Of a DNA stretch of 64,000 nt, positions 39,506 to 39,649 are shown piece by piece. The notes beneath the pieces are model-generated. The model was not told the DNA's origin. It made no database searches and saw nothing but the letters and a program-made list of their open reading frames with translations. Positions within the stretch are counted from its first letter, which is position 1. Each line of letters opens with the position of its first letter. The DNA is taken from NCBI RefSeq assembly GCF_055900595.2, contig NZ_CM148325.1, one strand, 5' to 3'. The position numbers and the translations under genes were made by a program.

Positions 39506-39649
39506 GTGAAAAAGTTTCGATGGGTCGTTCTGGTTGTCGTGGTGTTGGCTTGCTTGCTGCTTTGGGCGCAGGTATTCAACATGATGTGCGATCAGGATGT
39601 ACAATTTTTCAGCGGAATTTGTGCCATTAACCAGTTTATCCCGTGGTGA
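39506..39649 (+). CDS. mgrB: PhoQ-inhibiting small membrane protein MgrB (GTG start); absent from the ORF track because it is under 60 aa
   Basis: Hand translation gives [47 protein letters not shown], 47 aa. Confidence 0.85.

Follow-up and report, generated by a model that had tools for sequence, protein, structure and literature searches.

The 64,000-nucleotide stretch of DNA analysed here (the window) is, with a probability of about 95%, part of the E. coli chromosome and carries three known and annotated small genes, mgrB, yobF and yoaH, that were hidden by the 60-aa cutoff applied to its open reading frames (ORFs); mgrB would be activated by PhoP, yobF would be the first and weakly translated ORF of the yobF-cspC mRNA and yoaH would encode a soluble protein of the UPF0181 family. 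The window is collinear with approximately 1.884-1.948 Mb of the K-12 MG1655 genome, in reverse orientation and at ~97% identity. An ORF listing with a floor of 20 aa contained ORFs at 39506-39649, 40681-40824 and 53540-53719, which are the coordinates that the initial annotation had given, and with the start codons that it had proposed, including the GTG of mgrB. It had also named the products correctly, the proteins being 100% identical to K-12 b1826, b1824 and b1811 and matching curated families, and comparison with the reference annotation, the check that it had suggested, showed that all three translations match those of K-12. K-12 annotates all three genes and RefSeq records produced by PGAP also carry mgrB and yobF. 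At 47, 47 and 59 aa the products lie below the cutoff and this alone accounts for the absence of their genes from the ORF track, as had been supposed. The small-gene finding is correct but ordinary, since all three genes were already known.

Short ORFs are common by chance (the 2.2 kb from 39000 to 41200 is overlapped by 41 ORFs of 20 aa or more) and thus the reality of the three small genes rests on homology. The 2.2-kb mgrB region was found at a coverage of at least 80% in 5416 of 5426 complete E. coli genomes, with a best match that was 99.8% identical, and at this best-matching region PGAP annotates yobH, mgrB, yebO, yobF and cspC. Five proteins shorter than 60 aa are annotated in K-12 within the span that the window covers, namely mgrB, yobF, yoaH, yoaL and yobI, so that the list of three, real as its members are, was incomplete: yoaL is present in the window and went unlisted, as did yobI, a K-12 gene that is absent here.

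The mgrB coding sequence (39506..39649, + strand; 47 aa with a GTG start) is identified by its matches to Pfam PF13998 (2.2e-18, 66.3 bits against a cutoff of 27) and to the NCBIfam equivalog NF007635 (8.1e-26, 89.9 bits against a cutoff of 40, over residues 1-47 of 47), and its DNA is 100% identical to that of K-12 b1826, formerly yobG, with the same GTG start. The protein has the expected architecture of ~47 aa, an N-terminal hydrophobic helix, the tail cysteines C28 and C39 and a C-terminal tryptophan. In Enterobacteriaceae genomes, 117 loci were retrieved with a DNA pattern based on the MgrB motif MCDQDVQFF; all listed orthologues have C39 and all except one have W47, and the conservation of C28 does not count as an independent observation because this residue lies inside the search pattern. 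At the Enterobacteriaceae loci the entropy by codon position was 0.54/0.21/1.06 (positions 1/2/3) and the fraction of synonymous differences was 0.51, compared to 0.21 expected at random, and this pattern of entropy is a typical coding signature. Of 111 Enterobacteriaceae loci, 110 start mgrB with GTG and the remaining one with TTG; ATG was never seen, and this feedback regulator appears to have kept a non-ATG start as a conserved trait.

MgrB would be a peptide of the inner membrane, with a single transmembrane helix followed by a periplasmic tail that carries Cys28 and Cys39. It is expected to inhibit the PhoQ sensor kinase, a function carried over from published work on K-12 MgrB, to which it is identical; a sequence search found no solved homologue of MgrB. 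Phosphorylated PhoP would activate mgrB and MgrB would in turn inhibit PhoQ, giving the negative feedback on the response to Mg2+ and antimicrobial peptides that the literature describes. Loss of MgrB leads to hyperactivation of PhoQ, and in Klebsiella to colistin resistance.

The only point of some research value concerns yobF, which is usually listed as a conserved small protein and which is without a cross-genus signature of selection at the protein level. The ORF (40681..40824, + strand; 47 aa with an ATG start) is the first of the yobF-cspC mRNA and is identical in DNA and protein to K-12 yobF (b1824; DUF2527/DUF2627). The arrangement is that of K-12, without difference: the stop codon TAA (40822-40824) overlaps the Shine-Dalgarno sequence AAGGA of cspC (40837..41046, + strand; 69 aa, NCBIfam CspC 6.2e-51), and a terminator-like hairpin lies past cspC at 41092-41116. 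YobF matches Pfam PF10736 DUF2527 (1.7e-30, 105 bits against a cutoff of 25) over residues 1-38 of a 38-position model and matches no NCBIfam model. The ORF lies inside a promoter and leader region of cspC (40590..40836, + strand) that is ultraconserved at the nucleotide level; among 82 distinct sequences the column entropy was 0.03-0.5, where most of the upstream flank reached ~1.8-2.0 (a single 15-nt bin there gave 1.08). The region is nearly invariant and exceeds in conservation the synonymous sites of cspC.

This conservation does not take the form expected of a protein gene. The entropy of yobF by codon position was flat in the 82 distinct leaders (0.225/0.187/0.168), unlike that of mgrB and, at the same loci, of yebO (0.44/0.15/1.12), yobH (0.56/0.19/1.41) and cspC (0.004/0.005/0.41), all of which peak at position 3 as is typical of coding sequence. 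Within codons 1-38 the types of variant were distributed 11/9/7 over the three positions and the synonymous fraction was 0.22, exactly the random expectation of 0.22, whereas for cspC the corresponding figures were 0/1/62 and 0.98. The ATG was kept in 82/82 sequences, and the ORF that it opens is 15, 24, 38, 43, 47, 48, 55 or 56 aa long; in 34 of the 82 the length of the yobF segment departs from 144 nt by a number that is not a multiple of three, and there are frameshifts or stops in several genera. YobF thus shows no synonymous excess and its reading frame is not preserved across genera. The flat codon positions, the random synonymous fraction and the variable length of the ORF together indicate that it is the nucleotide sequence of the cspC leader that is conserved, and across genera DUF2527 behaves as a conserved RNA segment, unlike a typical protein family. 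The description of all three products as conserved small proteins accordingly stands for MgrB, on its cross-genus codon statistics, and for YoaH, on its curated families and four synonymous differences from K-12, but for yobF what is conserved is nucleotide sequence without a codon signature.

There is a body of published work on this leader. OxyS pairs near the Shine-Dalgarno sequence and so represses a translational fusion, yobF::sfgfp, that is itself active, the yobF-cspC operon being documented as well (PMC10965054), and CyaR co-purifies yobF, mgrB and yebO (PMC5861431). For the Shine-Dalgarno sequence of yobF, GAGGU, an aligned spacing of 21 has been listed (PMC9841429), and yobF/cspC has been cited as an extreme case in which translation efficiency, measured as the ratio of footprints to mRNA, differs more than 100-fold within one mRNA (bioRxiv 109264). 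Other work has shown that YobF is produced and has a function in E. coli: the protein has been validated with an epitope tag, is membrane-associated and is induced post-transcriptionally in low Mg2+, and that a yobF deletion causes a growth defect in low Mg2+ that is complemented only with an intact start codon (PMC11429745). Taken with the sequence data, yobF would open the yobF-cspC mRNA as an ORF of weak translation, situated inside an ultraconserved leader that is targeted by OxyS and, as reported, by CyaR.

The best reading of these observations is one of dual use, in which the small protein is real but under weak constraint and its ORF lies within a regulatory leader under strong constraint, and the lack of a protein-level signature of selection makes yobF a candidate dual-function segment of the cspC mRNA, coding and regulatory RNA at once. 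Another reading, for which we would put the odds at a little under even, is that the extreme conservation of yobF in the Enterobacteriaceae is imposed on the nucleotides of the cspC leader, through RNA structure, the binding of sRNAs or proteins or the translational control of cspC, and not on the amino acids of YobF, which would then be a lineage-variable dual-use ORF carried along by a conserved regulatory RNA, while DUF2527 would be largely a record of RNA conservation.

A rival explanation holds that yobF is not primarily a protein gene, that RNA or regulatory constraint has produced the apparent protein conservation of DUF2527 as a side effect and that translation is regulatory or incidental in most species. 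The flat entropy set against the third-position peaks of its neighbours, a synonymous fraction at the random level where cspC reaches 0.98 and mgrB 0.51, and an ORF of 15-56 aa from an invariant ATG with 34/82 off-frame segments would all be expected if this were so, as would the poor placement of the GAGGU Shine-Dalgarno sequence, the >100-fold difference in the footprint-to-mRNA ratio within the operon and the targeting of the 5' UTR near the Shine-Dalgarno sequence by sRNAs, which is known for OxyS and has been reported for CyaR. Against it, the K-12 protein has been validated by tagging and found at the membrane, and yobF complements the low-Mg2+ growth defect of the deletion, which a mutant with TAA in place of the ATG fails to do (PMC11429745); a dual constraint on protein and RNA would likewise flatten codon periodicity; and an RNA structure for the leader is unsupported by covariation and by the Rfam cspA model, which fails to match the leader alone. 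This rival is plausible, if some way short of an even chance.

The structural evidence deserves a fuller description. Folding of 69 distinct leaders with RNAalifold gave a structure with almost no covariation; this follows from the near invariance of the leader and means that an RNA structure cannot be claimed. A short hairpin within yobF, GCC-NNNN-GGC at ~40799-40808, has a variable loop on a stem that is preserved. The possibility that yobF lies within a thermosensor leader of the cspA type was considered and has been ruled out. The Rfam cspA thermoregulator model (RF01766) gives a full-length match at 40662-41121, 136 bits, that covers yobF and cspC, but the leader searched alone (40560-40836) gave no RF01766 match at E<=10, and MAFFT failed to align it with the regions upstream of K-12 cspA or cspE. 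The RF01766 score comes from the coding sequence of cspC, and the leader, itself without a match, should not be filed as a thermosensor of the cspA type.

The correct reading of the mgrB promoter is now fixed. The initial annotation had pointed to a string upstream of mgrB with GTTTAA repeats reminiscent of a PhoP box, while doubting that their spacing suited a 6-5-6 direct repeat, and had suggested a motif scan. The string, TGTTTAACTAACACATGCTAGTTTAA, is indeed present at 39450-39475. A scan of the whole window with the consensus KGTTTA-N5-KGTTTA located a properly spaced direct box (box 1) at 39439..39455 on the + strand, TAGTTA-GGCGC-TGTTTA (6-5-6), which matches with two mismatches. At up to three mismatches the scan gave 169 matches where 140 were expected and is uninformative alone; weak matches being common by chance, the box was checked by phylogenetic footprinting, and the case for it rests on position and conservation and not on the two-mismatch match itself.

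The footprint was drawn from 110 distinct 130-nt regions upstream of mgrB in the Enterobacteriaceae, in which the conserved blocks are acaGTtAg..c..gGTTTAag (the box), caTGnTAnnnT (the -10), cAt (the probable start), GGAG and GTG. The arrangement NNNNNN-N5-NGTTTA, followed after exactly 12 nt by TAnnnT, was present in 100 of the 110 promoters, with TG at -15/-14 in 97 of these 100. In the window the 12-nt gap is 39456-39467, the same length as in 100/100 matched orthologous promoters, and leads to an extended -10, TG-c-TAGTTT (39465..39473, + strand), with the hexamer TAGTTT at 39468-39473; elsewhere the same slot is occupied by TAACCT (43), TAATTT (20) or TATCCT (10). The upstream half-site is TAGTTA here and in K-12, as against CAGTTA in most genera (61 sequences). 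The Shine-Dalgarno sequence GGAG (39496..39499, + strand), 6 nt upstream of the GTG, is at least 90% conserved in the 110 promoter alignments.

This layout is shared with the promoter of Salmonella yobG (= mgrB), which has been footprinted with DNase and S1-mapped to a single PhoP-dependent start and assigned to 'architecture II' by Zwir et al. 2012 (PMC3335776). Box 1 of the Salmonella promoter, A-CAGTTA-CTCCT-GGTTTA-A, is followed after 12 nt by the -10 TAATTT and then after 5 nt by +1, with a 26-nt UTR, and a second box in reverse orientation, G-TTTTTA-GGAAT-GATTCA-C, is centred at -62 (PMC3335776). The promoter of mgrB in the window thus belongs to the known 'architecture II' type of PhoP promoter: 12 nt separate the direct box from an extended -10, a probable reverse box lies farther upstream and the UTR would be 26-27 nt long. 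As in Salmonella yobG, box 1 fits submotif S2 and its first repeat is degenerate. PhoP binding and the transcription start are predicted by homology with Salmonella: phosphorylated PhoP would bind TAGTTA-N5-TGTTTA (39439-39455) at the -35 position, 12 nt before TGcTAGTTT, and transcription would probably start at 39479..39480 (+ strand), a placement based on the S1-mapped Salmonella start and the conserved cAt, giving a 5' UTR of ~26-27 nt. A probable second box in reverse orientation at about -64, C-TTTTTC-AGAAT-GAGTCG-C (39406..39424, - strand; the conserved block atgATTCctAAAa on the + strand), is identical to the second Salmonella box at 14 of 19 positions, both half-sites being degenerate in E. 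coli (TTTTTC/GAGTCG), and probably assists the activation of mgrB. There are two single-base differences from the K-12 mgrB promoter, at 39417 (T/C), within the box 2 spacer, and at 39462 (A/G), between box 1 and the -10. The mgrB promoter serves as a positive control for EMSA in E. coli; Harari et al. 2010 (PMC2908699) make no mention of mgrB or yobG, and a literature search for the promoter string GCGCTGTTTAAC returned an irrelevant match only.

The proposal that the GTTTAA copies at 39451-39456 and at 39470-39475 are themselves the two PhoP half-sites, at a non-canonical spacing, has very little to recommend it. Both hexamers look like the half-site consensus and the first is truly part of a half-site, the downstream one of box 1. 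The starts of the copies are separated by 19 nt where 11 nt are required, which bears out the suspected poor fit and means that they cannot be the halves of a 6-5-6 repeat; the true partner of the first is the correctly spaced and conserved TAGTTA at 39439-39444, which corresponds to the footprinted Salmonella box. The second copy overlaps the -10, is not kept as GTTTAA in other genera and occupies the TAnnnT slot that is preceded by TG in 97/100 promoters; since other genera have TAACCT, TAATTT or TATCCT there, it is the -10 region and not a PhoP half-site.

A divergent promoter for yobH can be proposed from conservation at 39348-39410 on the - strand, with a -35 TTGCTT (~39402-39407) and a -10 TACGAT (~39379-39384), both given as reverse complements, and it shares one intergenic region with PhoP box 2 of mgrB. 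On the other side of the gene, the interval from mgrB to yebO (39650-39723) yielded no terminator-like site and contains a promoter-like TGgTAGAAT at ~39690-39698. In published MAPS data, pull-down of CyaR enriched mgrB 339x and yebO 93x, so that co-transcription or shared control by the sRNA is possible.

The best match to the PhoP box consensus in the window, and the only one with a single mismatch, is TGTTTA-ACTCC-CGTTTA (46491..46507, + strand) in the yoaL-yoaE promoter, 12 nt before TATAGG (46520-46525), and it is partly conserved across genera. It was considered as a new PhoP target and rejected as such, the same box sequence upstream of yoaE having already been published as footprinted by PhoP in Shigella (PMC5775216). 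The yoaL gene (46541..46699, + strand; K-12 b4751, Pfam YoaL 1.4e-37) encodes a 52-aa leader peptide that overlaps the start of yoaE/mgpA and is hidden inside an 84-aa ORF with a TTG start. YoaL has been described as the leader peptide of MgpA/YoaE (PMC12421838). Only its N-terminus, MDRHRR, is conserved across genera.

The third small gene, yoaH (53540..53719, + strand; 59 aa with an ATG start), is divergent from pabB (52105-53466, - strand), as in K-12. Its product matches Pfam PF03701 UPF0181 (2.8e-29, 100.9 bits against a cutoff of 23.5) and the NCBIfam equivalog NF003476 (1.5e-33, 114.2 bits against a cutoff of 72) and is identical to the K-12 protein (b1811; UPF0181 / NCBIfam PRK05114), while the DNA has four nucleotide differences from K-12, all synonymous. 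A single-sequence AF2 model (mean pLDDT 75) gave a helical hairpin (H10-25, H30-45) with an acidic tail; YoaH would be a soluble UPF0181 protein with this predicted fold. A Foldseek search of the model against the PDB gave nothing at E<=0.001 (best E 1.4), and a sequence search of the PDB gave no homologue of solved structure, its matches being marginal ones to designed proteins (E>=0.003).

Each of the hidden small genes is overlapped by unannotated ORFs of at least 60 aa that would act as decoys on a 60-aa track, one over mgrB (39467-39655, - strand, 62 aa), one at yobF (40513-40719, - strand, 68 aa), one at yobF/cspC (40721-41035, + strand, 104 aa) and one over yoaH (53524-53724, - strand, 66 aa). 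That these four ORFs, which do exist and would show on such a track, are the real features and the small ORFs the product of chance is next to inconceivable, given that it is the small ORFs that match curated families (1e-18 to 1e-33) and are annotated in K-12, that none of the overlapping ORFs is annotated and that third-position variation at the mgrB locus tracks the mgrB frame. The lesson is a caution of method rather than new biology, in that a 60-aa cutoff conceals functionally important genes and displays spurious overlapping ORFs in their place.

Two further observations were made in the window. A Mn2+ riboswitch (yybP-ykoY, RF00080) upstream of mntP, at 42715-42811 on the - strand, scored 39.1 bits (E-value 5e-08), which is below the Rfam gathering score of 45, and it was therefore missed in a scan at the gathering threshold. 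The interval between yebB and ruvA (~617-2221) is not K-12-like; a rare segment has here replaced the stretch with yobI, which encodes 21 aa in K-12, and two ORFs, 471-1520 (349 aa) and 1537-2127 (196 aa), are without a Pfam match. At least 80% of window positions 500-2300 is carried by only 19 of 5426 complete E. coli genomes, and the yebB gene adjoining the rare segment is only 81% identical to that of K-12.
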